Sequence record: OM386658.1
From: Escherichia phage vB_EcoM_ESCO32
Length of the DNA: 64,000 nt
Reading direction: 5' to 3' (one strand)
Shown here: in pieces, positions 14,504-63,992 of the stretch
How the letters are laid out: the number at the start of each line of letters is the position of its first letter
How positions within the stretch are numbered: the stretch's first letter is position 1
Notes under the pieces: generated by a model
What the model saw: the letters and a program-made list of their open reading frames with translations, nothing else
What the model was told of the DNA's origin: nothing
The model's database searches: none
Made by a program: the position numbers and the translations under genes

Positions 14504-14540
14504 CTACTACTCCTTTTATTAAATCTGGCATCAATACAAG

Positions 14541-14568
14541 AAAACCCGCCGGAGCGGGTTTTTATTTG
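14541..14568. terminator. intergenic GC hairpin, possible attenuator/terminator
   Basis: AAACCCGCcggaGCGGGTTT followed by TTTATTTG on plus strand and weaker U-tract on minus; lies between two minus-strand genes. Confidence 0.4.
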
Positions 14569-14577
14569 CTGGCTTAC

Positions 14578-15705: not shown

Positions 15706-15716
15706 TTTAACCCCTT

Positions 15717-16154
15717 TTATTTTTGTTGAGATGAACGAATTAAATCAGCAGCAAATTCAATCAGATACACTTTTGGTGCAATAATGATTTTTAGCCAATC
15801 AAAATTCGAAAAGAAAATAACAAATCCTAAAAAGAAAAAGAAAGCACAGACAACAAGGCCAACAATAGGTAAAGCAGATACTTCACCATAGCGATCTCGT
15901 GACCACAGGCATTCTTTATCTTTAATTGCTTTTACGAGGTTCCGCACAGCAATAAAAGTAATAAACATAAAGCAAATACTAAAAAGTTGCCATAAACCTG
16001 CGGATACTGCTTTCCACACTAATAGTTGATGGATTACTTCTGGAATTTGTTGTTTTCCAAACTCTACAACATCACTCATTGTTTGAATAGTGACGTTAAC
16101 CATGTTCAGAAGTACATCCGTTGCTTTATCTGCGATTGCGTTTGTTTTACTCAT
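15717..16154 (-). CDS. membrane protein (2-3 predicted TM helices)
   Basis: ORF track 145 aa; hydrophobic stretches LWQLFSICFMFITFIAV and IVGLVVCAFFFFLGFVIFF. Confidence 0.6.
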   Translation of the reverse strand: MSKTNAIADKATDVLLNMVNVTIQTMSDVVEFGKQQIPEVIHQLLVWKAVSAGLWQLFSICFMFITFIAVRNLVKAIKDKECLWSRDRYGEVSALPIVGLVVCAFFFFLGFVIFFSNFDWLKIIIAPKVYLIEFAADLIRSSQQK

Positions 16155-16168
16155 TCTTTATTCCTCAC

Positions 16169-16342
16169 TTACCTTTTAAGGAAACCAATCATAATGAAGA
16201 ACCACATCCAGGCAGGAGAGATAATAAAGCCAAAGAAACCGCAAATAACCGCTTTCTTAATCTCTTCCAGACAACCCACCAGGAAAAGAACGAGTGAGAC
16301 TACAATCCAAATAGCCATAAATACTGTAACAAAGAAACTCAT
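16169..16342 (-). CDS. small membrane protein (57 aa)
   Basis: gap ORF MSFFVTVFMAIWIVVSLVLFLVGCLEEIKKAVICGFFGFIISPAWMWFFIMIGFLKR with GGAGAAAGG RBS. Confidence 0.4.
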   Translation of the reverse strand: MSFFVTVFMAIWIVVSLVLFLVGCLEEIKKAVICGFFGFIISPAWMWFFIMIGFLKR

Positions 16343-16362
16343 ACCTTTCTCCCGTCTGTATT

Positions 16363-16614
16363 TTAAAATTCAACCACCACTTTATCGAGGTGCTCTGCTT
16401 CAACTTGATCTAATGTTAACACCTCAACTAAACCCTTGTCAATACCTAATTTAATAACATCAACATATTGTCCAAACAGATCCTGGATAGATATCTTGTG
16501 TTCGACAACAACAACCACTTCATTCCCTTTTGTGAATTCTCTCCATACACGTCCACATTTGAAAATAAAGTCTGCTTCATCTGCTGTTATCATTTTAGGT
16601 TTGATACTTAACAT
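16363..16614 (-). CDS. hypothetical protein (83 aa)
   Basis: ORF track; start overlaps the stop of the upstream gene. Confidence 0.5.
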   Translation of the reverse strand: MLSIKPKMITADEADFIFKCGRVWREFTKGNEVVVVVEHKISIQDLFGQYVDVIKLGIDKGLVEVLTLDQVEAEHLDKVVVEF

Positions 16615-16952
16615 TATAAAACTCCGTACTCTGGTTCAATATTATGCTTACGACAAATGGCATCCCAACGCTCATTACCAAAACTTCTTCCATGTAGTGC
16701 ATCGTATGCGAAATGTTCTGCCAACCACATTACTACACCATCTGGTTCAGTGTCAAGCGGAATTCGAAACTCTCGATCATAACGCATACGGAGAACAAAC
16801 TCATTACCGTCTTCCAGCAGGTGCATATGACTTTTAGCTCGTGATGCCAAATCGAAGAAAGGAGGTTCATCGTTCCAAACGTGACGCTCAACTTCAACAC
16901 CATGATCAACTACCAAAGTGGCAATTACTTCTCTCATTTCTTTACTAAACAT
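16614..16952 (-). CDS. hypothetical protein (112 aa)
   Basis: ORF track; ATG. Confidence 0.55.
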   Translation of the reverse strand: MFSKEMREVIATLVVDHGVEVERHVWNDEPPFFDLASRAKSHMHLLEDGNEFVLRMRYDREFRIPLDTEPDGVVMWLAEHFAYDALHGRSFGNERWDAICRKHNIEPEYGVL

Positions 16953-17050
16953 ATTAAAGCCCTCCTAATTTAATAGTCCACTCAACACCTGTTAGATAAC
17001 TTCTTTACACAAGTATACTAAGAACATATAAGTGATTTTACCAGATATGT

Positions 17051-17404
17051 TTAGCTCCACAAATTATGGAAATACTTAGCAAACAAAATACGACCTTCTA
17101 AACGCTTTTGCCGTTGTTTTTCATTAACTTCTTCAGGTGGAGTTGAATCCTTAAAAGAGGACTCCATTTTTTCAAGAATTTCTAACCAGTGTTCTGCTGC
17201 TCGTTCTTCCATATAAGGTAGATAGTCACCTTTAGCGTGTGGGTACATCCGACGAAGTAACCCGCTAGGAATTTTAACATTGTTTGTGGCTATCACTTTT
17301 GCACGATATGCAGAAAGTGCGTTGTAGATCAGTTTACTTAGTGTCACATCCAGATCAAGAAGATCACTCTCTTCAAATTGAATTTTATCGTGTACAATTT
17401 TCAT
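17051..17404 (-). CDS. hypothetical protein (117 aa)
   Basis: ORF track; ATG with AGGAG RBS. Confidence 0.55.
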   Translation of the reverse strand: MKIVHDKIQFEESDLLDLDVTLSKLIYNALSAYRAKVIATNNVKIPSGLLRRMYPHAKGDYLPYMEERAAEHWLEILEKMESSFKDSTPPEEVNEKQRQKRLEGRILFAKYFHNLWS

Positions 17405-17415
17405 ATCACTCTCCT

Positions 17416-17706
17416 TTATAGTAAAACACGTTTTGCACTGCTTGGTGCATTGTCGAACATGTTTATCACTTTGTCAAGTTTGTGTATTAACTCGTTCGTA
17501 ATGTTCCACTCTTTGTATGATCTCCATTGTTTCTTATTCTCACCTACCTGGTGTAAAACTTTGATTGGTGCATTCAAACGTACATTGCGTTCTTTGTCCT
17601 CTTCAAAAGAGGCTAACCATTTTTCGTTATGCCCATGAACAGCAATAATAATGCCAAAACCATCAAAAGTTTCTGTAATATTCTTAGTTGCTAGTGTGAT
17701 GTTCAT
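17416..17706 (-). CDS. hypothetical protein (96 aa)
   Basis: ORF track; first gene of minus island next to the divergent promoter region. Confidence 0.55.
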   Translation of the reverse strand: MNITLATKNITETFDGFGIIIAVHGHNEKWLASFEEDKERNVRLNAPIKVLHQVGENKKQWRSYKEWNITNELIHKLDKVINMFDNAPSSAKRVLL

Positions 17707-17765
17707 ATCTAACCTCTTTTGTTACGATACCCACAGAGTACCAGAAACTAATTTCAAATCAAGTA

Positions 17766-17793
17766 TTGACATACATTTTTATTTTGTTAAGAT
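17766..17793 (+). promoter_or_regulatory. sigma70-type promoter starting the plus-strand block
   Basis: TTGACA-16 bp-TAAGAT on plus strand in the divergent intergenic region 17707-17824. Confidence 0.5.
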
Positions 17794-17824
17794 TAGCGCA
17801 TACCAAATGAAAGGAGAAAAACAA

Positions 17825-18004
17825 ATGCAAAACATCGAACTAACTTCTATCGAAGCTAAAGAAGCAATGAAGGAAGATAGACGTGTTGAACATAACCGTT
17901 TTTGCGGTGGTGAGTGGTTTGAGATGGAATTCAGATCGGAAGTTTGGCAAGGGAGTGATGGGGCTGTAATCAAAAAGGAAAGAAGAAATGATCTACAAAA
18001 ATAA
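17825..18004 (+). CDS. hypothetical protein (59 aa)
   Basis: ORF track frame 17651..18004; start placed at ATG with AAAGGAGAAAAA RBS (MQNIELTS). Confidence 0.45.
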   Translation: MQNIELTSIEAKEAMKEDRRVEHNRFCGGEWFEMEFRSEVWQGSDGAVIKKERRNDLQK

Positions 18005-18140
18005 GTTCACTGGCTGTCTGCGTAAATTTATTGACAAAAAAGGGTATGTTTCTGTTGACAATGGTGTTACGTGGGTGCAAAATGGCACTTCAGAACAACT
18101 GGTCAAGGCTTTACCTTACTACGAGGAGTTTACAAAATGA
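17988..18140 (+). CDS. possible small protein (50 aa)
   Basis: overlapping-frame ORF MIYKNKFTGCLRKFIDKKGYVSVDNGVTWVQNGTSEQLVKALPYYEEFTK; ATGA overlap with next start; speculative. Confidence 0.3.
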   Translation: MIYKNKFTGCLRKFIDKKGYVSVDNGVTWVQNGTSEQLVKALPYYEEFTK

Positions 18141-18337
18141 CAGAATGGGTAAAAGTAGAAGATCCATACGATATCCCACTAGGTGAGTATGTGGTGGTAA
18201 TGGAAGATGGTGAAAAAGGGTATTGTGAAGTGCATAAAAGTATGTCTGGTAAGATTATTGTGGTGAACCATCATTTTCACTTTGATTACCCTCCTATTGT
18301 GGCATATATGCCTTTACCTAAATATGAAGGGGATTAA
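18137..18337 (+). CDS. hypothetical protein (66 aa)
   Basis: ORF track frame 18071..18337; start placed at ATG with GGAG RBS (MTEWVKVEDPYD). Confidence 0.45.
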   Translation: MTEWVKVEDPYDIPLGEYVVVMEDGEKGYCEVHKSMSGKIIVVNHHFHFDYPPIVAYMPLPKYEGD

Positions 18338-18484
18338 ATGTTATTCTTTAAACTTAATATTGCTTTTTGTTTGTTTGCAAACATTGCATTCTGGGTACTA
18401 GGTAGTGTAAAATTAGGCTACTTCTTTACTGTACTACAAGCTATTTGTTTAGCTGGTCAAATAATCACTAAGGGGCGAGTATGA
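18338..18484 (+). CDS. small membrane protein (48 aa)
   Basis: gap ORF MLFFKLNIAFCLFANIAFWVLGSVKLGYFFTVLQAICLAGQIITKGRV; TAAATG and ATGA couplings with neighbours. Confidence 0.4.
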   Translation: MLFFKLNIAFCLFANIAFWVLGSVKLGYFFTVLQAICLAGQIITKGRV

Positions 18485-18909
18485 CACAACAAATTCAAGA
18501 CAAATTTAATGAACTCTATCCAGCAAGTGAAAGCGGCACTCATAACGTGCGTAAATCGCTCTATAACGTCTTTAAAGCAGGATGGGAGGCTTGCCTTCAG
18601 GCTCAAGAAAAACCAGCGTCAGAGACGCGTAACGGCTTTTATATCCCGATTGTTGAAAGTGAGGAAGGATGGGGTAGCAAACATGATGGTTATATGGTAG
18701 GATTCACCATAGAAGATCTTGAAGAACGCCGTAAAGTCTTTGAGGCAGCTAATACAGAAAAGTATGGCTACTATTATGAACGACCTGTTCGTTACATTCC
18801 TGTTGTGCTTAGTCCTAAAGCTGTTGAAACAATGTCTGCAACAGAAAAAGAAAGGACGCGCCATTGTGTATGGTTTGATGATATTGACGACTTTCGATTT
18901 GGAGAATAA
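18481..18909 (+). CDS. hypothetical protein (142 aa)
   Basis: ORF track; ATG with AAGGGG RBS. Confidence 0.6.
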   Translation: MTQQIQDKFNELYPASESGTHNVRKSLYNVFKAGWEACLQAQEKPASETRNGFYIPIVESEEGWGSKHDGYMVGFTIEDLEERRKVFEAANTEKYGYYYERPVRYIPVVLSPKAVETMSATEKERTRHCVWFDDIDDFRFGE

Positions 18910-18912
18910 TTT

Positions 18913-19185
18913 ATGAAAAATAAACACCCTTACTATCAACTATTGCATGTACTGCGCCGATTGCGCAATAAGCAGATTGAAGATTTCCGTCACTTCAAGC
19001 GTGATCGTGTGAATCGTCAATGGATGGATCATCGTTTCTTCTCTTTAACTGTACGTAAGTTCCGTGAAGAGATTAAGAAGACAGACCAGGTAATTGCAGG
19101 TGCTAAACGTGCAATCTCTATGTCAAAAATCACAGGTGTAAATCATATGTACGACTTCAAAACAGACTCTGTTGTACCTATGTAA
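18913..19185 (+). CDS. hypothetical basic protein (90 aa)
   Basis: ORF track; ATG. Confidence 0.55.
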   Translation: MKNKHPYYQLLHVLRRLRNKQIEDFRHFKRDRVNRQWMDHRFFSLTVRKFREEIKKTDQVIAGAKRAISMSKITGVNHMYDFKTDSVVPM

Positions 19186-19348
19186 AGTATTTTGTAAAGT
19201 TTTGTGGAGAGTATTGACTTTTTCAGAAAAACATGCTACCCTAAACCTGAAAGGTGACGAGCGAAGCGAGTTAGTATTCTCTATAGATATTGTTCCTGTC
19301 ACTCATGGAGGGGCAGGAACAGAGTATATTACTGTATAGGAGAATGCT

Positions 19349-49109: not shown

Positions 49110-52100
49110 ATGGGAGCTTTTACTTTCGACATTGAAAGTAACAACTTGCTTAATGACGAAAGTGTAGATTACTTGGCAAGTCCATATCGTTTAAAAGATA
49201 GTTTTGCAATGCACTGTATTGTGTGCGAAAGTCATGATACTGGAGAGATTATTGCTTTCCATGATGGTGATAAATATCTTTTCGATGGTCGTCCGTATGT
49301 TGAGACTGACGGAAAGTATGAATACCGACTGGAGGAATATGAGCATTTAGAATATACCCATTTCCCTCTTAAAGATTTTCCTGATTTTGTAAATGGAACA
49401 GGTAAATTTAAAGGTAATTCAAACTATAAAATTACCAAAGTAGTTGGACATAACATCATTAACTTTGACTTACTGGCAATTAAATTATTTTTTAAACTCA
49501 ACTACAGTATTAAGTACAATACTTGGGGTAATAGTAACATTGAAATTTGTGATACTATGATCTTAAGTAAGACACTAAACCCTGATCGCTTCGGTGGTCA
49601 TAGTCTGGCAGAGTTATCTAAGAAGGCTGGAGGGGATGTTAAAATTGATTTTAGAAAAAACATTCCTGAAACTGAAAGATTTAAAACATTTGCAGCAGAT
49701 ATGCTGTATTACTGTATTTACGATAACAAAGCTAACACCGCAGTGTTCCGTTATTTGATGGAAGAGTGGGGTGATTATAATAAGTGGTCTGAACCATTTA
49801 ACTTAGAACAACGTGTAGCTGATATTATTACACGTCAAGAGCACCGTGGCTTTGCTTTCAATATGAAACAAGCAGAAGATAATATTCGTGATCTGGATGC
49901 TCGAATGGAAGCATGTCGTTTAGAGGCAGAACCTGTGCTACCTCCTAAACCTGCTACTAAAGGTTATTTGAAATCATTCATTCCACCTAAACTACAGTTT
50001 AAAAAGAATGGTGAACCTTCAAGTAACATGATAAAGTTTGCAGAGAAACATTCTGGTGAACTTGTACAAAAAGAAGATGGTTGGTGGCTATTTGCATTAG
50101 GTAAAGAGTTTAAACTACCTATTCCAGCAGAAGAACCTATTTGTGATCCTACAGTACCTGCTACTTTAGACGACACTACACATATTAAAAACTGGTTAGT
50201 TGGTTTAGGTTGGAGTCCATCTGAATATAAAGATAAAGATATCACTCTTAAATCTGGCACTAAGATTAAGAAAGATGAAGCACAGATGGAGAAAGCTATT
50301 CGTGACTATGTTGATCAAACGTTAGCATCTAATTTCTGCCAGGACAGATGTGATCATCTGGAGTGCACACCAGAAACTTTGGAATGGAAACTAAGAGATC
50401 GTATTGCTAAAGCTAAAGGTCGTGGTGTTAAAGTGCTTACTAACCCTTCCTTTACAAAAGGGCAAGAGAAAGATATTTGTCCTAACTTGGAAGCACTAGG
50501 TGAAAAGTTTCCTTATGCTACGCAGATTGTGCAGTATCTTACGTATAAACACCGTAGGAACTCTATTCTAGGGGGTGGTGCTGATTGGGAAGAAGATGAA
50601 GAGGATTATGATAAAGGTTATCTGGCAGCAGTAAGGGCTGATGGTCGTATACCAACTCCTGCTGCAACGTGTGATGCAGCTACGTCTCGTATGAAACATA
50701 GGTTAGTAGCAAATATCCCACGTGTAACATCTCTGTACGGATATGAAATGCGTAACTTATTTGGTGTAGAAGTTCCAAAATACTTCCAAATTGGTTATGA
50801 TTTTGATTCTCTTGAGGCAAAAATAGAATCACACTACTGTGTACCTATGGATGCACAAGCACTAACCCGTAAAGGTTGGGTTGGTTATCACGATCTACAA
50901 GAAGGGGATGAAATCTTAGGATATAACCCAGAAACAGGACTTAAAGAATGGACTAAAGTAAAAGGTAAGGTCTTCTATAAAAATAGTAAGACGTTTGAGA
51001 TTAAAGGAAAATCCCATACTTACCGTGCAACAGCAGATCACCGTTGGTATGTTAATACCCGTAGTAAAGGGAATACTTATGTGCCTAAAGTCAGAACAAC
51101 TGCCGAGCTTTGCACAGGAGATAATATTATTTGTAATGCTCCATTTAACATGGAACAAGATCAGGTAAATAGTTTAACTTCTGTTCAACAAGGTAAATGG
51201 GATGTTCCGTGGGTAGAGCGTGTAGTTAATATGTCTCATGCCGAGCGTGTAGCTTTCTTGGAAGGTTTCTTGATTGCAGATGGTTACTGGCATGAACATA
51301 AACAAAAACCTGTTTGGCGTTGGGCGCAGAACCCAGGTGAACTTTTTGAAGCAGCTTTAACTGCCTCGTACCTGGTGCATGGAGGCAATATCTCTGTAGC
51401 TTTCAATACAAAAGAGCAGAAAGTAAAAGTGGCAACATTGGCTAACCGCTCTCACATTCCTGTTCAAAGTTTGACTATTGAAGAGTGGGGTGTAGAGGAT
51501 GTTTGGTGTCCACAAACAGAACTTGGTACGTGGGTCATGCGTCAGAAAGACTGCATTACCATCACAGGAAACTGTTGGCGGTACGAGCAGGAACCACACG
51601 AATATTGTAATGCTCTATTATTGGAAAAACCTAATGATGTTCATACAATGATGGCTCGACGTATTTCTGACACTATTGGTCGTAAGTTTGAACGAAGCCC
51701 TGCTAAATCTGTTAAGTATGGTATTACTTATGGTGCTCAAGCTGCAAAAGTAGCAAAAACTATAGGTAGTGATATGTATACCGGACAGCTTGTATACGAT
51801 GCTTTCTGGGAAGCTGCAAAACCTCTTGCGCTTCTTAAAGAACGTCTGCATGACTTTTGGGTTAAAACAGGTAAGAAATACATTCTGGGTATTGATGGTA
51901 GGAAAGTACCTACACGATCTGCACACGCAATACTTAACTCTCTGTTCCAGAGTGGTGGTGTTATTTGTGCAAAAAGAGCAATGGTTATCTACGACGATCT
52001 TATCGAAGAAGAAGGATTAGCTGTTGACTTTTTTGTTGATGACTGGAAAAATAAGTCATTCGTTCAACAAATGATTGCATATCACGATGAAGCACAGCTT

Positions 52101-52424
52101 GAAGTAACTCGTGATCTGGTGCATTTTAAATGGTTCTCTAAAGAATCTTTAGGTTGGACTCAAGTTGATGATCCAGAAGAACAAAAGAAAATTGATAAAG
52201 AATGTTTGGATAAAGTTAATGCCTGGAAAGAAGAGGAAGAGAAACGTACTGGCAAGATTTGGGCTAACGTACATGAATCTCCGAAAGGTGGTTGGTTTAC
52301 AGCCTACAGTCGTGCTGGAGAATTAGCATCTATCGCTGTTAATAAAGCTGGTGAGTATTACAATCTTAATGTACCTCTCACTGCTGGTTACGATGTTGGT
52401 AACTCATGGGCCAGTTGTCATTAG
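49110..52424 (+). CDS. family-A DNA polymerase (T7-like) interrupted by an intein
   Basis: ORF track 1104 aa; exo FDIESNNL; motif A DFDSLEAKIESHY; post-intein CWRYEQEPHEY...DVHT parallels T7 pol as recalled; motif B KYGITYGAQ; motif C YHDE. Confidence 0.9.
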   Translation: MGAFTFDIESNNLLNDESVDYLASPYRLKDSFAMHCIVCESHDTGEIIAFHDGDKYLFDGRPYVETDGKYEYRLEEYEHLEYTHFPLKDFPDFVNGTGKFKGNSNYKITKVVGHNIINFDLLAIKLFFKLNYSIKYNTWGNSNIEICDTMILSKTLNPDRFGGHSLAELSKKAGGDVKIDFRKNIPETERFKTFAADMLYYCIYDNKANTAVFRYLMEEWGDYNKWSEPFNLEQRVADIITRQEHRGFAFNMKQAEDNIRDLDARMEACRLEAEPVLPPKPATKGYLKSFIPPKLQFKKNGEPSSNMIKFAEKHSGELVQKEDGWWLFALGKEFKLPIPAEEPICDPTVPATLDDTTHIKNWLVGLGWSPSEYKDKDITLKSGTKIKKDEAQMEKAIRDYVDQTLASNFCQDRCDHLECTPETLEWKLRDRIAKAKGRGVKVLTNPSFTKGQEKDICPNLEALGEKFPYATQIVQYLTYKHRRNSILGGGADWEEDEEDYDKGYLAAVRADGRIPTPAATCDAATSRMKHRLVANIPRVTSLYGYEMRNLFGVEVPKYFQIGYDFDSLEAKIESHYCVPMDAQALTRKGWVGYHDLQEGDEILGYNPETGLKEWTKVKGKVFYKNSKTFEIKGKSHTYRATADHRWYVNTRSKGNTYVPKVRTTAELCTGDNIICNAPFNMEQDQVNSLTSVQQGKWDVPWVERVVNMSHAERVAFLEGFLIADGYWHEHKQKPVWRWAQNPGELFEAALTASYLVHGGNISVAFNTKEQKVKVATLANRSHIPVQSLTIEEWGVEDVWCPQTELGTWVMRQKDCITITGNCWRYEQEPHEYCNALLLEKPNDVHTMMARRISDTIGRKFERSPAKSVKYGITYGAQAAKVAKTIGSDMYTGQLVYDAFWEAAKPLALLKERLHDFWVKTGKKYILGIDGRKVPTRSAHAILNSLFQSGGVICAKRAMVIYDDLIEEEGLAVDFFVDDWKNKSFVQQMIAYHDEAQLEVTRDLVHFKWFSKESLGWTQVDDPEEQKKIDKECLDKVNAWKEEEEKRTGKIWANVHESPKGGWFTAYSRAGELASIAVNKAGEYYNLNVPLTAGYDVGNSWASCH
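50838..51572 (+). mobile_element. intein (245 aa) with LAGLIDADG-type homing-endonuclease motif inside the DNA polymerase
   Basis: starts CVPMDAQALTRKGW (block A), TADHRWY (block B), LEGFLIADGYW (LAGLIDADG-like), ends ITGN followed by +1 Cys; inserted right after polymerase motif A. Confidence 0.7.
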
Positions 52425-55109: not shown

Positions 55110-55841
55110 ATGAGCGAATTTGTAAACAACACCGCGTTAAACTACCTGCAAACCCTCGAAAGCAATAGTGTAGATTTGATTCTTACTGACCCACCATATG
55201 CTATTTCTCGTGACACAAATTTTCAATCTGGAGAGCCTACTGGAAAAGATACAGATAGATTCCGTGTATCTTACAACTTTGGGGATTGGGATGTTGTAGA
55301 TATTCCTTACTTTAAAGAAGTATTCAAAGAAGCCTATAGGGTGCTTAGAAAAGGTGGTACTTGCATAGTTTGGTATGATATCTGGAAGATCCAGGAGCTA
55401 CGTGAAATCCTTGAACCGCTTGGTTTTCGTATGTTCCGTACTATTGAATGGATTAAAACAAACCCTGTACCCATCAACAGTGGTGTTAACTACCTTAGTA
55501 ACGCTAAAGAGATGGCTATTGTTTGTGTTAAAGGTTCTAAGCCAACCTTCAATGCCTCCTACCACAAGGGTGTGTTTGAGTATCCTATCTATCAAGGAGC
55601 AGATCGTTTTCATCCGACACAAAAACACTTGACTTTGTTTTGTGACCTTATTAATATACATACCAACGAAGGAGATGTAGTCTTAGACTTCTTCTCTGGA
55701 AGTGCAACAACACAAGTTGCGGCACTTTTAACAGGTAGAGAATACTTAGGCTGTGAAGCCGATGTAAATATTTTTAAGCAAGCGGAGGAACGACTAAATG
55801 AGTACACTGAACAGCAAAATCACCCTGAAAGCACTGATTAA
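55110..55841 (+). CDS. DNA amino-methyltransferase (N6-adenine or N4-cytosine), beta class
   Basis: ORF track 243 aa; DPPY catalytic motif (LILTDPPYAI) precedes SAM-binding DFFSGSATT. Confidence 0.8.
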   Translation: MSEFVNNTALNYLQTLESNSVDLILTDPPYAISRDTNFQSGEPTGKDTDRFRVSYNFGDWDVVDIPYFKEVFKEAYRVLRKGGTCIVWYDIWKIQELREILEPLGFRMFRTIEWIKTNPVPINSGVNYLSNAKEMAIVCVKGSKPTFNASYHKGVFEYPIYQGADRFHPTQKHLTLFCDLINIHTNEGDVVLDFFSGSATTQVAALLTGREYLGCEADVNIFKQAEERLNEYTEQQNHPESTD

Positions 55842-56229
55842 CAACGGTATGAACCTGGACTCTGGTCTGTCTCCAAAGATTTCTATGGCACGACTAGAAC
55901 AAGTTACTGGTCTTCGTCAAGTAAGTAATGGCGGTAAGATTATTCGTGATGACGCTGTACCTTTTAATAAATTTCAGATTGAACGTCATTACGATCCTGT
56001 AACTGCAAGTCTCACTGGTGTAACTTTCTCAGGTTATCGTACTGCCGGATACCAACGTAAGGTTGTAGCTGAACGTATTAAAAATCGCAAACAGAAAATT
56101 GCAACATTGAAGAAACTAGTAGAGAAAGATGTTTCAGAACTTCTTAACCTGTATGAAACTCTTGAGACAAAAGGTGAAGATCATAAACTCTTCTCTAAAG
56201 AAGATGTGAGCGTAATTTTCACTGATTAA
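55798..56229 (+). CDS. hypothetical protein (143 aa)
   Basis: ORF track; last plus-strand gene before the convergent late genes. Confidence 0.5.
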   Translation: MSTLNSKITLKALINNGMNLDSGLSPKISMARLEQVTGLRQVSNGGKIIRDDAVPFNKFQIERHYDPVTASLTGVTFSGYRTAGYQRKVVAERIKNRKQKIATLKKLVEKDVSELLNLYETLETKGEDHKLFSKEDVSVIFTD

Positions 56230-56237
56230 GATAAAAG

Positions 56238-56264
56238 AAAAGGAGCCTATTGGCTCCTTTTTGT
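56238..56264. terminator. bidirectional terminator between convergent transcription units
   Basis: AAAGGAGCCtatTGGCTCCTTT with T runs on both sides. Confidence 0.5.
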
Positions 56265-58151
56265 TTATGTAACATTGACTGTAAATCTGACAAGAGGTGA
56301 TAACACGTCATTATCAGCATCATAGTGTGCAACATCAAACACTGCTGTACCTGCTGCAAACCCGTATTGTTCAACCTGATCTGCATAAGTAAATGTGTAA
56401 GTGTTAGTATCAAGAGTTTGTTCTGTAAGAATTGCTGCTGTGAGGACGTTTACATTTCGGAAGTAATGTTTGGTATATCCTGCTGGTTCCCAAGAAATAA
56501 TTGCATCTTGGTTAGCTTGTCTTACAGCGGCTCCTCCTGTTGGAACAGACATATCAACCCAAACAGGTGGTGTTGATGTTAAATCTGTACCGTCTGCTGC
56601 TGATTTAGCAAGTTTTGTAGCTGCTGTTTGATATACAGAAGAAATATAATGGATACGACCATCAATACCTTCTTCATAAACATAACCACTGTAACGTTCA
56701 GCACCATCTACCCAAGAACCAATGATAACATCATCACGTGCTGTAGAGATGGTTCTTTGTACATTTCTGTACTTCTGCCAATCCACACCATTAACTTCTA
56801 CACCATATAAATAAGAACGTCCTAGGATCTGCCAAACAATTTTTGCTTGAGAAGCAGGAACTATTGTACGCATCTTATCAAAGATAGCTATCGTAGCATC
56901 ATGGTAACGTGTAGTGTTACTGTACCTACCTGCAACAGTCGAAGATGCTGATACAGCATCATTTTCACCTTGTCCCCAAATAATTGCTTTAACCTTACTT
57001 GCATAAGGTGTGACTTTAGTGATAAAGTTAGTTAAGCATGGCCCATCTGCTGTGTTATCCAGATCATACCAGTAGTTGTCTGGTGTACCTGTTCCAGCTT
57101 TATCGTCAGCATATTTATCTGCTGCTGATGATCCAGAAGCTGTATTTAACGGAAGAACTTCAGCATTTGCTAAACCACGTTGCGTAGCATATGCATTACG
57201 GGTTGTTGTGCTACTCATTACTGCTTTATTTGCACCAGATAATTCTGTAAAGTGTGCATTTACGTTATCTTGTCCAGCAAAGACAATAACTTCTTTAATG
57301 AACGAATCATCTGTAGCTATTGAGTTATTAAAGATAACGGCTGCTGCTTTGGTGCTCTTAACGCTAATTTTAAGGTATGTTGGAGCAAACCCATAAAGAG
57401 GAATAGAGTCAGAGATATCAAAGTAAGCGTAAGTATTCGTGGTTGTTGTAGTCCACTGAACACTATTATCACTTAAATCTAATACTTCTACAGTATAAGT
57501 ATCACCGTCTAGTGGATCAGTTACATCCCAAGCAACACGAACGTCTCCATAACTGTTTGCCACGGCTGTTACATTAGAAATAACAGGAATAGCATTAACA
57601 CCTAAATAAGAACTATCAGAGGCCACAACTGTTCCTTGATACGTTGCAGTACAACCTATACGGCAATTGCCATCTTTAAGAGCAGTTATTAATCCTGTAG
57701 GGCTTACAGTAGCTACTTCTGGATCTGTTGTGGTGTATGTAATTACCATATCTGGAAGGTCTTTAGCACCTTCTGGACTGATTGTAGCAACCAACTGTTG
57801 AGTAGTGCCTACATCCATAGCCGATAGACTTTCAGTGTACACACTTAATTCTGAAGCATAACCACCAGATTGATCAGTTAAGACAGCACCTAAATTATTT
57901 TTAGCTGTCATTATTGCATCAAAACCACCTTCAGCAACAAACTCCATCATACCATTATTATCTATAACCATTTTGGTATTATCTGAAGATGAAAAAGCTA
58001 TATCAAATAACGCACCATCTTCGGGTGTAACTGTATATGTCAGTTGTTTTTTACTACCAACTATTGCAATGCCAATAGAGGAAGTGGTTATAGATGTAGC
58101 TGTTACTACTGAAGCTGATGTTGTTGACATAAATAAAGGAATAGGATACAT
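56265..58151 (-). CDS. tail fibre/spike protein with Ig-like domains and SASA/SGNH-type carbohydrate esterase domain
   Basis: ORF track 628 aa; Big_2-like ITYTTTDPEVATVSPTGLITALKDGNCRI; esterase-like VIVFAGQDNVNAHF and AIIWGQGENDA. Confidence 0.65.
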   Translation of the reverse strand: MYPIPLFMSTTSASVVTATSITTSSIGIAIVGSKKQLTYTVTPEDGALFDIAFSSSDNTKMVIDNNGMMEFVAEGGFDAIMTAKNNLGAVLTDQSGGYASELSVYTESLSAMDVGTTQQLVATISPEGAKDLPDMVITYTTTDPEVATVSPTGLITALKDGNCRIGCTATYQGTVVASDSSYLGVNAIPVISNVTAVANSYGDVRVAWDVTDPLDGDTYTVEVLDLSDNSVQWTTTTTNTYAYFDISDSIPLYGFAPTYLKISVKSTKAAAVIFNNSIATDDSFIKEVIVFAGQDNVNAHFTELSGANKAVMSSTTTRNAYATQRGLANAEVLPLNTASGSSAADKYADDKAGTGTPDNYWYDLDNTADGPCLTNFITKVTPYASKVKAIIWGQGENDAVSASSTVAGRYSNTTRYHDATIAIFDKMRTIVPASQAKIVWQILGRSYLYGVEVNGVDWQKYRNVQRTISTARDDVIIGSWVDGAERYSGYVYEEGIDGRIHYISSVYQTAATKLAKSAADGTDLTSTPPVWVDMSVPTGGAAVRQANQDAIISWEPAGYTKHYFRNVNVLTAAILTEQTLDTNTYTFTYADQVEQYGFAAGTAVFDVAHYDADNDVLSPLVRFTVNVT

Positions 58152-58190
58152 TTAATCTCCTTAAACAATAAGCCCCCGAAGGGGCTTTGA

Positions 58191-60152
58191 TTATGTGCGT
58201 TTAGCAACAATAGCATCCACGTAATCACCAACACCACAATATGTTAGTTGTAGTATTGTTACTCCGTTAGGATCTGTATTAATATCACTAGAACCAATTA
58301 CTTTATAAGATGGATCTAAAGTAACAGTACGACCTCCAGTGGCATCTTGGATAAGATAAACTATTGCAGAGAATGGTTTAGGTTTTGTGCTATCTTCGAC
58401 ACCAGGCCATGCTTTTATAGTAGAGTTACCAGTAAGATTCAACACATTCATGTTATGTGTTCCTGGAGGTGTCCAGTCACCTGTAACAGAGTTGTTGGTA
58501 TATGCTGTAACCTCTATAAAATTAGTTGTTACTTTTGTTGGAACTATATCTTGACCATCTACAGAACTGGTGAGTTCTTCCCATGCTCCATCTTTACGAG
58601 CATAGATCTTACCGTCACTAGGTGCATCTGTGATGCTAGGTAGTGTACCTTGAGAAGTCCAGACAGTTGCAGATGTTTTTAAGAACACCTCGCCAGTGGA
58701 GATATTAAAGGCATAATCACCTTGTTTACCATCACTAGAGATTGGATCTGTTGTTTTAACAATCCAAGTTGCACCGTCTGTACCGTTAGTACCAGCGTCA
58801 CCTTTTTCACCCTTATCACCTTTCAAACTACCCATATCTACATATTCAGCAGTTTGAGTTTGTTCGTCATAGGTGTAAATGTAAAGATGGCCTGTATCTT
58901 CCGTCAGATAAGCGTCACCGTAATTGGCTGTAGGAGGAAGTGCACTTGCAGACGCAACGTGTCCTTTTGCAGTGATTGGAGTACCAGCTAAACGACCAAC
59001 ATTTGTCCACTCTGTGGCTCCTTGCAACCAGACCCAAAGTTCATTATTGATCAGATAACCATCACCATCTTCTCCAGTTTGTGGTAGTTCAGAAGTGCTA
59101 GTCAGAATATCAATAATAGTCAACCCTGCGCCAGTTGGCCCCGTCAAGCCTTGTATACCCTGCTCACCTTGATCACCCTTGTCTCCCTTATCACCTTTTT
59201 CTCCTTTCAGAGAGGCAATATATTCGTCAATAGTACCAACGTTACCAGCATTTAACCAGACTTGATAAGCAGAATCACCAGTGTTACCCTTATCTCCTTT
59301 GTCGCCTTTATCTCCTTTTGGCCCCACTATAGCGCCCATATTGATCCATTCTACACCGTTTGACACGTATAGATATGTACCAATACTCCATGCTTGAGAT
59401 GTGTTTCCAGGAGATGCAGAAGGAAGATCTGAAACAGAGTTAGCTGCACCTTGGTAATCAAAACCATTAGCATTATTACCTGGTACACCTTGTGGCCCCT
59501 CTGGGCCAGGCTCCCCTTTATCACCTTTAATTGAAGCAAGATAATCTAGTTCTGTACCTTGGTTCCCTGCTGCAAGCCAAACTTGATAAGCAGATTTACC
59601 CTCTGGCCCCTGTGAGTTTACTTTTCTCCAAGCAGTACCATCCCAAGCATACATATTCTCGCCTACAATCCATGCATCTCCTGCATTGTTTCCAGTTGTA
59701 GGTAATTGGTTGGTATTAGATAGTGTCCCTAGTAGCTTTAATGGAGCACCTGGATCACCTTTTAAAGAAGCCAACCACTGTGTCTCAGTACCTTGGAAAC
59801 CATTGTCTACGGCAATCTGGTAAGCTGATTTACCAGCTTCTGGGATGGATTCTCTAAGATCTTCAATTTCAGCTTCAATAGCATCTAATTCTGATTCTAT
59901 TTGAGCAATGTCATCTGCATTACCCACATTTTTCCAAGCTGTATCTGAAATCCCTCCAGTAGATGTAGGAGTAGAGTTAGCAGGTACAACTTTAGGTAGA
60001 GAACCTTTCCACTGATAGTAGTTACCGTCAGCTTCAAAGAGCAATGCTTCACGAGCATCTCTTAAGGTAAAACCACTTGCAAAACTTCTACGCTTTCTAT
60101 AGCGAGACTCTACCATGTCTGCAATGGCACTATTTGGACGTGTTAAAATCAC
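58191..60152 (-). CDS. tail fibre protein with collagen-like Gly-X-Y repeats
   Basis: ORF track 653 aa; GDKGEPGPEGPQGVPG, GPKGDKGDKGDKGNTGD, GEKGDKGDKGDQGEQGIQGLTGPTG. Confidence 0.8.
   Translation of the reverse strand: MILTRPNSAIADMVESRYRKRRSFASGFTLRDAREALLFEADGNYYQWKGSLPKVVPANSTPTSTGGISDTAWKNVGNADDIAQIESELDAIEAEIEDLRESIPEAGKSAYQIAVDNGFQGTETQWLASLKGDPGAPLKLLGTLSNTNQLPTTGNNAGDAWIVGENMYAWDGTAWRKVNSQGPEGKSAYQVWLAAGNQGTELDYLASIKGDKGEPGPEGPQGVPGNNANGFDYQGAANSVSDLPSASPGNTSQAWSIGTYLYVSNGVEWINMGAIVGPKGDKGDKGDKGNTGDSAYQVWLNAGNVGTIDEYIASLKGEKGDKGDKGDQGEQGIQGLTGPTGAGLTIIDILTSTSELPQTGEDGDGYLINNELWVWLQGATEWTNVGRLAGTPITAKGHVASASALPPTANYGDAYLTEDTGHLYIYTYDEQTQTAEYVDMGSLKGDKGEKGDAGTNGTDGATWIVKTTDPISSDGKQGDYAFNISTGEVFLKTSATVWTSQGTLPSITDAPSDGKIYARKDGAWEELTSSVDGQDIVPTKVTTNFIEVTAYTNNSVTGDWTPPGTHNMNVLNLTGNSTIKAWPGVEDSTKPKPFSAIVYLIQDATGGRTVTLDPSYKVIGSSDINTDPNGVTILQLTYCGVGDYVDAIVAKRT
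59118..59555 (-). repeat. collagen-like (G-X-Y)n coding repeats within the tail fibre gene
   Basis: three Gly-X-Y blocks rich in GDKGDKGDKG; coordinates approximate. Confidence 0.55.
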
Positions 60153-60192: not shown

Positions 60193-62607
60193 TTAAGCAT
60201 TATTGACAGTAACAAAAGTAACAGGGTTCAGAGCTTTAATTTTTGTATTCTCTGCTGTAGGTGTTACAATTGGATCTGCAATATCTATTGTGTACAAACT
60301 ATTTGTCACATATGTAGCACGTGCTATAGTTGTCACAAGATCGCCGCCATTTACACCTGCACCTGGAATAACAATCTTAGTACCTGCTGCTTTAGCGTAG
60401 CCATTACTAGCCCAGTTTAAAGCATTAGACTGTAGATAGGTTTGACCTGTAACAGTTGCTTTTATTTTCTCATTATCACTAAAGAAAGCACCACCTGCTG
60501 TAACAACGTGTTTTTTACCGCTTGCACAATGAATAACTGTTCCAGTAGGGAAGTCACGCCCACCTGGGAATTCATCATAAGCTGTAAAATATTGTTCAGA
60601 AATAGTAGTTAAAACTGGCCCACGATGACCTGTACCATCAACAGCAGTTGGAACACCAAAGTTATTTCCAACCTGATCGCAACGATCAGTGTAGATTTTA
60701 GCAAAAGAAACTGTTATTTCATCTCCGCTAAGTGCTGTACATCCTACCCACTTCATATACGTGAATTGGCTGCGAGTATAGAAACCGCCACCACTTCCTT
60801 CTCCGCTTCCATGTTGACCAATAAAGTCAATGCTACGGCAACGAATGTTATTAAAGGTAGAGCTAGATGGTAGTCCACGCCATTTAAAAACATTACAATT
60901 GATGTTACTAACAATTGTAGAGTTTTCCCAGGCATCTGATCCAGCCGTTGCAATCTCAATTGAAGATTCTGGAATATCCAAATTCTTAATTGTAAAGTTA
61001 ATTGGTGGCCCCGCATATCTTCCACTGTTAACACCCCAGTCAATAAAGACCATGCGTGTTGAAACAGACGGATCATTAAGCAGATAACCAGTTAAACCAT
61101 CAACTTCAAAATCTTGGCATCCGTATAATGCAACACCACAAGTAGTTAAACCTGTACCTGTTGAAACTGCTGTGTTAGGATAAACTTCGTTATCACGTAT
61201 TGTGAAGTTTTTACCCATTTCAACGTGTAAACATTGACGGCAATTGTAAACCCTATTCCCAACGATACTGAAATTACGTACATATTGTGAATCAGGAACA
61301 TCAACACCATATGGGCCACTACCTGCTACACCAATACCAATACCCCAGTTTGCCCCTTGTCCAGAAGCATCTACGTTAGCAATGTGGTTATTCTCGATAA
61401 TCAAACCTTCAGTGTAGTGTTTTTGAACTACGTTAAGTTCAATAGCATCACCTTTAATATCGTGAATATAGTTGTTAGAGTAACGCCCGTAGGTCATTAC
61501 TTCTCCAGTACCTTGTTGCAGGATCGCATATTTACAACCATACATTTCGTTGTAACTGAAGTCCAACGTACCTTCACTTGTCATTGCTTGCATTAAGAAT
61601 GCTGCTGTAGATGTTGCGTTGGAGAAGATATTACGATAGAATCGGCAATCACCACCTAACATCTTAACATAACATTTTTCAAAGCGAACGTTTTCCATCC
61701 AACAAGACACAGTAGAAATCATTGTTCCACCGTTACCAGTGAATGTACCACCATACCAACGAATACCAGACATAGCAATTGAGCTTGTGAATCTATAATT
61801 CTTATCTGCACGTACTTGAATGTTATTCGTGTTAGCGAAAGTAATGGTTTTTAAAATTGCTTGAGTATCATCGGTAACTCCATCACCAATTGCACCAAAC
61901 TGCTCAGGCGTTACAAAGTATTGAGCTTGTAAGAGGTTGCCTCCAGATGGAAGACCAACCATTGCTGCACCAGTGGTGGATGACAAAAGGTTTTTCTCTA
62001 CGTAAGAAGTAGAGGCTGTTGTTTTACCAATAAAAGCAAACAATTTGTTAGGTAGACCAGTAGACGGATCTAAACCTAGTGGTTCTGCCAGAATAATTTT
62101 ACTATCTTTGATAGTAAATGCTTCACCTTGAATCTGAATTACACCGTTAATGGTGACAATAGCATTATCAAAGATATAAGGAGGACTGATTTCTGTTTCA
62201 TATCCTGTAGCACCTTTAAAATACCAAGGATACACATCTGAAGCTAACTGTTCAGTTTTAAGAGCGTACAGAGTCCAGTTACTATCTCCTACAGGTGTTC
62301 CCTGCATAGGTACAGGGTTCGCAGTAGTGGCAGATGGGGCATAATAGTACCCACTCAAGATACCGTTTTCAAAATAACGTAACTGGTTAAATACAGTTTC
62401 AGTTGATCCTGCTGACCAAGCAACAGGACTCTTAAAGAAGAAGTTATCAACAAGTGCTTTACGCAGTGTAGGTATTAAACCTGTTTCGGTTTCTACAGTT
62501 GCTGTAGCATCTCCATTAATAACATCATGCATCTGGTTAGACGAGAATATAACCAGATCAACACCTTGTTCTAGTGTCGTAGCAGGATATGTTGGAAAAT
62601 TCGCCAT
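60193..62607 (-). CDS. tailspike/tail fibre with right-handed beta-helix (pectate-lyase-like) domain, candidate depolymerase
   Basis: ORF track 804 aa; N-x-I-x-N-rich repeats (NNYIHDIKGDAIELN ... IIENNHIANV ... IVGNRVYNC ... IRDNEVY). Confidence 0.7.
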   Translation of the reverse strand: MANFPTYPATTLEQGVDLVIFSSNQMHDVINGDATATVETETGLIPTLRKALVDNFFFKSPVAWSAGSTETVFNQLRYFENGILSGYYYAPSATTANPVPMQGTPVGDSNWTLYALKTEQLASDVYPWYFKGATGYETEISPPYIFDNAIVTINGVIQIQGEAFTIKDSKIILAEPLGLDPSTGLPNKLFAFIGKTTASTSYVEKNLLSSTTGAAMVGLPSGGNLLQAQYFVTPEQFGAIGDGVTDDTQAILKTITFANTNNIQVRADKNYRFTSSIAMSGIRWYGGTFTGNGGTMISTVSCWMENVRFEKCYVKMLGGDCRFYRNIFSNATSTAAFLMQAMTSEGTLDFSYNEMYGCKYAILQQGTGEVMTYGRYSNNYIHDIKGDAIELNVVQKHYTEGLIIENNHIANVDASGQGANWGIGIGVAGSGPYGVDVPDSQYVRNFSIVGNRVYNCRQCLHVEMGKNFTIRDNEVYPNTAVSTGTGLTTCGVALYGCQDFEVDGLTGYLLNDPSVSTRMVFIDWGVNSGRYAGPPINFTIKNLDIPESSIEIATAGSDAWENSTIVSNINCNVFKWRGLPSSSTFNNIRCRSIDFIGQHGSGEGSGGGFYTRSQFTYMKWVGCTALSGDEITVSFAKIYTDRCDQVGNNFGVPTAVDGTGHRGPVLTTISEQYFTAYDEFPGGRDFPTGTVIHCASGKKHVVTAGGAFFSDNEKIKATVTGQTYLQSNALNWASNGYAKAAGTKIVIPGAGVNGGDLVTTIARATYVTNSLYTIDIADPIVTPTAENTKIKALNPVTFVTVNNA

Positions 62608-62948
62608 TAATTTTTGTCCTTACTTTGTGTGCGCTTTGTAATCTCCTCTAGCATTAATTGAACAGGAGCATTTTTTAAATCCATTATTTTTTCAATCTTC
62701 TGTTCTAAGGCAGTATTATTTGCCATTAATGTAGAGTTGATCTGGTTAAGCATTTGAGCAAGTTCTGCTTTGGTAGCATAAGTGGATTCAACAAACACCA
62801 ACTTCTTTTCTAGTTCGCGGTATTTGTCTTCCATTTTATCCAAATCACTTGCCATATCATCTATCTTCTGTTTGAAGACCACCCAGATTACGCCAATAAG
62901 AGGGATAATCGCCTCTTTAGCGATATCCCATACTTCTGTTAGCTCCAT
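62607..62948 (-). CDS. hypothetical protein with N-terminal hydrophobic helix and coiled coil (113 aa)
   Basis: ORF track; IIPLIGVIWVVF hydrophobic segment then heptad-rich region. Confidence 0.5.
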   Translation of the reverse strand: MELTEVWDIAKEAIIPLIGVIWVVFKQKIDDMASDLDKMEDKYRELEKKLVFVESTYATKAELAQMLNQINSTLMANNTALEQKIEKIMDLKNAPVQLMLEEITKRTQSKDKN

Positions 62949-62957
62949 ACATTGCCC

Positions 62958-63509
62958 CTATTTCTTAGGTCTTGTAGGCCAAGTTATATTAGGTGCATCT
63001 TCAACGTTAATTTGAATTAATGTTGCACGATAGAGTTTAACTTTTCCTAACCAATCTTTTTGTTCTTCAGATAAACCTTGTAATTCCTCTAAATCTTGAA
63101 TCGCAGACACTTGATTCGTAGCCCAAGTTAGCTCCTTTTCTAACTTAAGAGTAGCATCTTCAATAGCAAGATTATTGTGAGGAACAAACTTACCTTCAAC
63201 ATATTGCCAAGAGCCAATATTACTTTCATCTTCTATTTTATCTGGTACATTATATGTAACTAAAATAGATTGTCCGGCAGGGAAATAGGTAGTAACATCT
63301 TTAGTAGCACCACGTACAATATTATTATCATCTAAGGTAATAAAATAAGCGTCGGGATATTCTACCATCAAAGTTTTTTGAAGCTGATACCAGTCGTTAC
63401 CATCTTTGTCTTGCAAAAAACCACCACCAACAGAAAGATAAAGAATATTTTCTTCTGTTAATTCTGGTTCATACAATTCAAAACCTGTAAAAATAACGTC
63501 TTTTTTCAT
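62958..63509 (-). CDS. hypothetical tail-associated protein (183 aa)
   Basis: ORF track; position within the tail fibre module. Confidence 0.55.
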   Translation of the reverse strand: MKKDVIFTGFELYEPELTEENILYLSVGGGFLQDKDGNDWYQLQKTLMVEYPDAYFITLDDNNIVRGATKDVTTYFPAGQSILVTYNVPDKIEDESNIGSWQYVEGKFVPHNNLAIEDATLKLEKELTWATNQVSAIQDLEELQGLSEEQKDWLGKVKLYRATLIQINVEDAPNITWPTRPKK

Positions 63510-63518
63510 AGACTCTCC

Positions 63519-63992
63519 TTACGAAACGTTGGTTACTGTTATCCAGCTACCATTAATATAATATTGTAGCGGGGCTGACCAATACCAAGCACCACGAAGT
63601 TCTTTCTTGTCACCAAAACCCCAACCTGTGATCACGTGACCAGCATAGAAACGAGACTCAGACACACCAGCTTGGATACGTGTTCCAAGACGGATAGCAG
63701 ACACAACAGAAGAAACTCTATTGTTAATGCTATTAATTTGGCCTTGCAAGTTACTATTAACGTTGTTAATATTATTTTGCAGTGTGCTTTGCAATGAGTT
63801 TAGTCTGGAGTTAAGATAATCTAATCTTACAAGAGCATTACCATTACCAGTATCTTGACCAGAATTAGAACGAGGGTTGTCTATTAAAACATAACCTGCA
63901 TCATATAAACGGACTGCACAAGATGTTCCTCCAGTTGATGGGTTCATTCTATAAATATAGAGTTGACCACCTGCACCTGGTTCAGAGGACAT
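63519..63992 (-). CDS. hypothetical structural protein (157 aa)
   Basis: ORF track; lies within 8 nt of the window end, upstream context not visible. Confidence 0.5.
   Translation of the reverse strand: MSSEPGAGGQLYIYRMNPSTGGTSCAVRLYDAGYVLIDNPRSNSGQDTGNGNALVRLDYLNSRLNSLQSTLQNNINNVNSNLQGQINSINNRVSSVVSAIRLGTRIQAGVSESRFYAGHVITGWGFGDKKELRGAWYWSAPLQYYINGSWITVTNVS

Follow-up and report, generated by a model that had tools for sequence, protein, structure and literature searches.

An Accessory Tail Protein of Escherichia Phage vB_EcoM_ESCO32 with an Esterase-Like Domain and Aspartate at the Predicted Nucleophile Position

The gene and the domains it encodes

The subject of this report is a single gene in a 64,000-nucleotide (nt) stretch of Escherichia phage vB_EcoM_ESCO32 (sequence record OM386658.1), to which we refer as the window. 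The gene is a minus-strand open reading frame (ORF) that spans positions 56265..58151 exactly, stop codon counted in, and encodes an accessory tail protein of 628 amino acids; its ATG start lies at 58151, and a strong Shine-Dalgarno sequence, AAGGAG, can be read straight from the sequence at 58157..58162, 5 nt before the ATG. A preliminary description of this DNA proposed that the product joins Ig-like domains to an esterase that deacetylates surface polysaccharides. We find that a domain related to esterases is indeed present and that, throughout a clade of related phage proteins, aspartate stands where the catalytic serine would be expected. We consider it more likely that the protein binds a sugar of the host surface than that it deacetylates it.

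The gene is 100% identical to that of Escherichia phage outra (MN850645) and 97-99.5% identical to those of other members of the genus Justusliebigvirus, the phi92-like myoviruses of the Stephanstirmvirinae; by taxonomy, the host phage is itself a myovirus with a contractile tail. In 57 phi92-like genomes there are orthologs, which bear the label 'tail protein' or 'lateral tail fiber protein'. The 'tail protein' VEcB gp208 is an ortholog, and the ORF is a short allele of the 'BIG2 domain-containing protein' Bas60_0037/alia. A match to PHROG 32204 ('tail protein') covers the full length of the product.

The order of domains, all encoded on the minus strand, is Ig-Ig-FN3-(SGNH/SASA-like)-FN3. 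The first Ig-like domain occupies residues ~20-106 (57834..58094) and the second residues ~112-190 (57582..57818; best Pfam stretch, 112-170). Pfam Big_2 (PF02368) matches in two stretches with an E value of 1.9e-13 and 50.6 bits, against a cut-off of 22.8 bits, and both domains form confident beta-sandwiches in a full-length AlphaFold2 (AF2) model (predicted local distance difference test [pLDDT] ~88-92), so that this part of the preliminary description stands as it was given. The second domain is 58-63% identical to Ig domains in phAPEC8-like tail proteins. There follow an FN3-like beta-sandwich at residues ~191-272 (57336..57581), which aligns with residues 619-715 of phage N4 gp65 and is deleted in phi92; the SGNH/SASA-like (pseudo-)esterase domain at residues ~285-522 (56586..57299), in which beta and alpha elements alternate, with five strands in AF2; and a second FN3-like beta-sandwich at residues ~530-628 (56268..56564), which aligns with gp65 ~975-1067 and with later repeats of gp65 and diverges strongly between alleles. 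The latter half of the full-length model is of low confidence (esterase domain pLDDT 30-70). The alignments behind the AF2 models were shallow, homologue searches having given 2 proteins for the domain alone and 5 for a profile that included N4-like sequences, and the models served for fold class only, not for active-site geometry.

A divergent member of the SASA/SGNH superfamily

Taken by itself, the middle domain scores below the Pfam gathering score of 24.8 bits for SASA (PF03629), reaching 15.1 bits within the full protein and 16.1 bits as the domain alone; we therefore rejected direct membership and used transitive evidence instead. Pfam SASA also gives no match at all on N4 gp65 or on the Arace01 and PspYZU01 proteins, although the first copy of the domain in Arace01 carries a canonical GQSN...QGEQDA. 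An exhaustive search of 1.84 billion representative proteins returned 75 homologues of residues 265-628, and five of the homologues tested pass the SASA cut-off (P0111, 31.9 bits; P0116, 26.3 bits; P0117, 30.8 bits; P0151, 43.9 bits; P0161, 48.6 bits). A profile of 17 diverse family members matches two SASA structures, 2APJ (E 9e-5) and 1ZMB (E 1e-4), its blocks I and III aligning on their GQSNMAG and QGESD motifs. The AF2 model of the isolated domain is poor (pLDDT 52; predicted template modeling score [pTM] 0.61). Compared with the PDB by Foldseek, it finds N4 gp65 first and thereafter SGNH-fold proteins only; its BFVD matches are the alia and phi92 orthologs, one N4-like protein, and phage SGNH hydrolases. 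The fold seen in this low-confidence model is a three-layer alpha/beta/alpha SGNH fold with five parallel strands. Because homologues pass the SASA cut-off, the profile matches 2APJ and 1ZMB, and the model's matches are coherent, we conclude that the middle domain belongs by homology, as a divergent member, to the SASA/SGNH superfamily. The two motifs on which the preliminary description had relied, FAGQDNVNAHF and IIWGQGENDA, are present (residues 291-301 and 390-399) and are not chance resemblances, being blocks I and III of the 75-homologue family; the likeness to SASA/SGNH esterases drawn there holds for the fold and these blocks and fails on the protein's own Pfam SASA score.

The closest relatives outside the clade are prophage and metagenome homologues labelled 'non-contractile tail sheath protein' (P0111-P0124, e.g., Xanthobacter WP_447020336; 35-46% identity, E 1e-79 to 1e-43). 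With the ESCO32 domain they share the blocks and the FN3 domain that comes next, but they keep GQSN (GQAN in P0114), and several of them (P0111, P0112, and P0114) carry NCTSP_N and the TIM barrel in one chain.

The residues of each block were tabulated from an alignment of all homologous domains, the number of domains covered differing per block (58, 78, and 54 for blocks I, III, and V, respectively). Block I of the ESCO32 protein, FAGQDNVNAHF (57249..57281), stands against a family consensus of aGQSNa.gHF; serine is found in 41 of the 58 aligned domains, and Asp295 takes its place here (GQD295N). The block II region reads LNTASGSS (57126..57149), the family consensus being vN.a.GGS. Block III, IIWGQGENDA (56955..56984; consensus iiWaQGE.DA), retains both the glutamate and the aspartate, each found in 58 of 78 domains (WGQGE396ND398A, residues 392-399), and Gly395, Glu396, and Asp398 are invariant in the clade. 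Block V, RIHY (56646..56657; consensus G(W)IHY), keeps the histidine found in 47 of 54 domains. The ESCO32 sequence there is D497-G-R-I-H501-Y, with Gly498 three residues before His501, where more typical SASA members read D-x-(V/L)-H. In the AF2 model, Asp295 follows directly on strand 288-292, where helix 294-305 begins, and His501 sits in a loop ahead of the last helix, 504-520; modeled thus, the two residues occupy the canonical SGNH places of Ser and His.

The aspartate is a property of the clade and not of one genome. It stands at the nucleophile position in 36 of the 36 clade proteins that cover the region (Justusliebigvirus and Av-05-like), and elsewhere in one degenerate N-terminal copy and two edge-aligned fragments. 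Its codon, GAT at 57267-57269, is at least 2 substitutions away from any serine codon, and the aspartate is thus no sequencing slip. Between lineages that are only 42-46% identical, N296, H300, G395, E396, and D398 are invariant, and His501 is replaced by Gln in 2 of the 5 Av-05-like clusters, which still keep the aspartate. Loss of the serine recurs among the virion proteins of this family: P0114 has GQAN, and the second copy in gp65, where blocks III and V are degenerate too, has GINQ. Neither the window nor 49 kb of phi92 yielded a further esterase domain that bears the serine. As aligned, then, the canonical Ser-His-Asp triad is not intact, while the histidine and the QGExD block are kept. 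The preliminary description had named the lack of both an esterase fold and a Ser-His-Asp arrangement as what would speak against it: the fold is predicted, and the Ser-His-Asp arrangement is absent. Compared with the SASA esterases (PF03629; 1ZMB, Arabidopsis 2APJ, and E. coli NanS 3PT5), the ESCO32 domain differs in having GQDN for GQSN, and with it no nucleophilic serine; in having Gly for the acid of D-x-x-H; and in sitting inside a multi-domain virion protein.

A sequence search of the PDB yielded one strong match, the 1382-residue N4 gp65 'non-contractile tail sheath' (9LC0, 9YF4, 9YF5, and 9YFT; phmmer E 2e-25). By BLASTP, residues 192-613 are collinear with gp65 619-1062 (23% identity, E 2e-16); an upstream copy of the domain in gp65, at 428-603, also aligns with residues 277-451 (30% identity). 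PHROG 15324 matches as well. The two proteins thus have in common an FN3-(SGNH/SASA-like)-FN3 module with the motifs aHF and WGQG(E/D)xDA. N4 gp65 serves that phage as its receptor-binding protein and makes the sheath together with gp64 (PMC13434306); it belongs to the adsorption apparatus of the virion, and we class the ESCO32 protein likewise, as a putative component. The tail spike (TSP) of phage phiAxp-3 is 54% identical to gp65, and its residues 795-1195 suffice for receptor binding (PMC5862860); if the proteins are collinear, which we assume, this part corresponds to about residues 350-628 of the ESCO32 protein. The differences are also considerable. Proteins of the gp65 type build a hexameric sheath around a short non-contractile tube; the ESCO32 module stands behind two Big_2 domains, in a contractile-tailed phage, and the protein gives no match to PF23844 or PF23845 (NCTSP_N and TIM barrel), both of which gp65, Arace01, and PspYZU01 possess. 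It has neither NCTSP_N, nor the TIM-barrel segment, nor an adjacent gp64 partner. Where the nucleophile would stand it has Asp, gp65 copy 1 has Ser, and gp65 copy 2 has Asn; copy 2 lacks block III and the His, both of which the ESCO32 protein keeps.

No gp64 homologue was found in the 64-kb window. The gp64-like gene of phi92-like phages lies ~10 kb upstream, in another tail protein (JohannJBalmer MZ501084, 22993-23751; the phi92 gp142 region), and these phages accordingly hold modules of the two halves of the N4 sheath heterodimer in two separate proteins. In N4 itself (gp65, 15044-19192; gp64, 13758-15011), the first SASA-like copy of gp65 (residues 425-612, motifs GESQ and WGQGDQDA) ends after the fourth strand, and the N-terminus of gp64 (residues 15-76, '...GIGQIHFNVE...') matches positions 180-240 of the family profile, the missing block V, with an E value of ~2e-3. 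By alignment, the serine of GESQ falls near gp65 residue 449. The Pfam TIM-barrel model is likewise divided between the two proteins (gp65 374-416; gp64 109-407). From these alignments, the N4 sheath heterodimer may build a complete esterase-like site, with Ser from gp65 and His from gp64.

Adhesin, enzyme, or structural module

The gene is under purifying selection. Against PaulScherrer and VivaForever, the ratio of nonsynonymous to synonymous substitution (dN/dS) is 0.18-0.22 for the gene as a whole and 0.06-0.17 for the SGNH domain. In the last FN3-like domain (56268-56564), synonymous divergence (dS) from the same two phages rises to ~1.1, compared with 0.02-0.15 in the rest of the gene, and we therefore place a recombination boundary near residue 526, with exchange of the distal end. 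Most relatives, among them alia and Bas60_0037, are 936-939 amino acids long and run on past '...VNVT' into an extra C-terminal domain of ~310 residues, which has no counterpart in the ESCO32 protein; these long alleles are otherwise orthologous, and they and the phi92 products are 94-99% identical to it over the common parts. The ~310-residue domain follows directly after the Ig domains in phAPEC8-like phages and is also present in Kagunavirus and Sf11 tail proteins (~27% identity). The short form is found in outra, VEcB, muut, and the Av-05 lineage. A receptor-binding protein would be expected to show a mosaic of this kind at its distal end.

In phi92 (NC_023693, 16321-17983) the gene is broken, unlike the intact ORF of ESCO32: a 218-nt deletion cuts residues 199-272 and shifts the frame, a second frameshift follows near residue 334, and the fragments are annotated as gp152, which holds the Ig domains, and as gp153, under the remark 'no RBS, weak prodigal statistics'. 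Because the phi92 copy is disrupted, the gene must be dispensable, at least in that lineage, and this is also why the paper on the phi92 structure by electron cryomicroscopy (cryo-EM) never mentions it (PMC13450770).

The reading we favor, and to which we give about even credence, is that the protein is a dispensable accessory adhesin built on a pseudo-esterase, and that it binds a host surface sugar in preference to deacetylating it. By sequence, the SGNH domain descends from SASA-family serine esterases. In this clade Asp has replaced Ser, while purifying selection has preserved the Gly and Asn of block I, the block QGExD, and, in most members, the block V His. A domain so changed would no longer carry out canonical Ser-His ester hydrolysis; its sugar-binding pocket would persist as a lectin-like adhesin, held off the virion by the Ig and FN3 domains, and reversible binding of host surface polysaccharide would aid adsorption. 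The variable C-terminal end, where many relatives carry the ~310-residue domain, would be distal and face the host. The N4 glycan receptor (NGR), or another acetylated glycan, may be regarded as a candidate ligand only. We infer the virion location, the ligand, and the inactivity of the protein from sequence comparison, and each is to be taken as a candidate assignment.

Several observations weigh against this reading. The placement of Asp295 and His501 at the catalytic positions comes from sequence alignment and secondary-structure position, and the structural models are of low confidence in the esterase domain (pLDDT 52-61). Aspartate serves as the nucleophile or the general base in some alpha/beta-hydrolases and could in principle do so here. 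The phi92 cryo-EM structure, its copy of the gene being broken, is silent on the position of the protein in the virion (PMC13450770). As for NGR, on which phi92-like phages depend (PMC8669472, PMC11990801) as do the Vequintavirinae, this dependence follows a separate gp64-like TIM-barrel fibre, and among the matches listed (60 of 264 records) there is no rV5-like phage (Vequintavirus) that matches the esterase region. Avunavirus Av-05, a member of the Vequintavirinae, does carry the module. The link between NGR and the ESCO32 protein is thus weak. The lateral fibre termed a 'glycan deacetylase' in the BASEL work and tied to NGR was considered as a candidate and set aside: it is not the ESCO32 ORF, being the gp64-like TIM-barrel protein ~10 kb off, outside the window.

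The main rival to the adhesin is the enzyme that the preliminary description envisaged, an active carbohydrate O-acetyl-esterase, here one in which Asp295, paired with His501, would act as nucleophile or general base and which would deacetylate surface polysaccharide, letting the phage draw closer to the cell surface. This is less likely than an adhesin, and we consider it improbable. Both the fold and the ancestry are those of an esterase, purifying selection has kept every other block of the active site, and the change from Ser to Asp is specific and invariant, which is not what random decay would produce; SGNH esterase tailspikes are also known in N4-like phages, e.g., G7C and Moo19/B2, as cited in PMC11990801 and PMC11654681. 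The defining nucleophile is nonetheless absent from all clade members that cover the region, the acid three residues before the histidine is Gly, and two of the five Av-05-like clusters have exchanged the histidine itself while keeping the aspartate. An aspartate nucleophile is not known to us from any SGNH or SASA enzyme. The long alleles are labelled 'tail carbohydrate esterase' in ALITA and KMB37, but such database labels are automatic and not experimental. G7C gp63.1 and the Moo19/B2 tailspikes provide a functional analogy, in that a phage-borne SGNH-fold domain is aimed at surface polysaccharide, but, according to the literature cited in PMC11990801 and PMC11654681, they are experimentally active O-antigen deacetylases with the catalytic Ser present and an architecture of another kind. 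Given the missing Ser in the aligned sequences, membership of the ESCO32 protein among the trimeric, active esterase tailspikes of the gp63.1 type is unlikely.

Comparably doubtful, in our judgment, is the proposal that the protein is purely structural or decorative: an Ig-decorated spacer, or a sheath-like or Hoc-like decoration, in which the former enzyme domain is retained only as a scaffold, a role that copy 2 seems to play in the N4 sheath wall. That copy lacks every catalytic block and is still ordered in the N4 sheath; in PHROG matches the Ig domains resemble major tail proteins and other Ig-bearing structural proteins; and the adjacent collagen-like fibre has been likened to a head spike (PMC13450770). 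A mere scaffold would not be expected to hold its pocket residues (N296, G395, E396, D398, and H501) across 42-46% identity, however, and the mosaicism and variability of the distal end are those of receptor-binding proteins.

More speculative still is the idea that the domain with Asp for Ser is not dead, and that it represents either a new SGNH catalytic variant, with Asp as nucleophile or base, working on a conserved enterobacterial glycan, NGR for example, or an esterase frozen into a high-affinity lectin for an O-acetylated receptor. If true, either variant would be a previously unrecognized receptor-binding activity of phi92-like phages. That the gene is a decaying, functionless remnant of a tail-fibre cassette is very improbable: it is disrupted in phi92, and the outra allele lacks the C-terminal domain of most relatives, but the ORF is intact and has a ribosome-binding site (RBS) in dozens of genomes, dN/dS is ~0.2, and an equally short form is kept in the distant Av-05 lineage.

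The idea of an esterase is not new, because the family is already so annotated in databases, where its labels include 'tail protein', 'lateral tail fiber protein with intimin and glycosidase domains' (the label of Bas60_0037), 'non-contractile tail sheath', and 'tail carbohydrate esterase'. Of the clade-wide change from Ser to Asp, and of the precise relation to the gp65 module, we found no mention in the literature that could be searched. The automatic label 'tail carbohydrate esterase' can mislead as to mechanism when the fold is that of an esterase and the nucleophile is gone clade-wide, and host-range prediction and engineering need enzyme appendages to be told from mere binders. The matter has some practical bearing, phi92-like phages being studied as broad-host-range 'Swiss-army-knife' phages and as candidates for therapy. 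Through this gene, moreover, a tail protein of a myovirus is linked with the module that binds the receptor in the N4 sheath. We regard the case as one of moderate interest: the protein is accessory, it is already labelled a tail protein, and none of its features runs counter to current understanding.

The fibre cluster and other features of the window

The ORF lies at the transcriptional 3′ end of a minus-strand fibre cluster. The preliminary description had called it the first late gene, which misread the strand; it is the most downstream gene of the cluster, and it faces plus-strand replication genes across a bidirectional terminator-like hairpin (56237..56262) that separates it from the convergent plus-strand ORF 55798-56229. 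VEcB and the distant Avunavirus Av-05, which has a homologue of ~41% identity, also have the gene in this terminal position. In order of transcription the cluster begins with a tail fibre gene (63519-63992) and a fibre assembly gene (62958-63509), which are followed by a small lipoprotein-like ORF of 113 amino acids (62607-62948), a colanidase-type tailspike (60193-62607; PHROG 6117, E 2e-268), and a collagen-like fibre homologous to phi92 gp151 (58191-60152), all on the minus strand. The count of three distinct receptor-interaction modules in the preliminary description, which added the ORF to the tailspike and the collagen-like fibre, is too low for what phi92-like phages carry. The 113-residue ORF has matches to a PHROG 'lipoprotein' family and weak ones to Rz-like spanin families; lodged between the fibre assembly gene and the tailspike, it is an odd presence inside a fibre cluster.

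The collagen-like fibre has a Tail_spike_N (TSP1/gp66) docking domain at its N-terminus, Gly-X-Y repeats, and a weak Fibritin_C match. In the 2026 phi92 cryo-EM study, gp151 was not placeable in the baseplate density, and its similarity to a head spike was remarked (PMC13450770). Between the fibre gene and the ORF, a consensus scan picks out a terminator-like GC-rich hairpin with a T-run on the minus strand (58170..58187). Its position inside the cluster, just upstream of the RBS of the ORF, suggests that the last gene may be attenuated or may be a separately acquired cassette.

Two further observations concern other parts of the window and other records. The plus-strand DNA polymerase gene (49110-52424) encodes 1104 amino acids, compared with 859 in VEcB, the difference being one insertion of 245 residues (residues 578-822, ~50841-51575) whose first residue is Cys and whose last residues, ...ITGN, precede another Cys, as at the boundaries of a class-1 intein; the phi92 DNA polymerase gene has the same length, 3315 nt. 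No Pfam intein family matches the polymerase at E<=0.001, and we call the insertion a putative intein on the strength of the alignment gap and the boundary residues. Finally, several records labelled 'Campylobacter phage' (MG065639, MG065656, MG065689, and others), one labelled 'Serratia phage', and one labelled 'Klebsiella phage' are ~98% identical over the gene, the Campylobacter records being without annotation, and an 'Acinetobacter phage' record matches the phAPEC8-like relatives; these odd host labels are probably misassigned or derived from contaminants.

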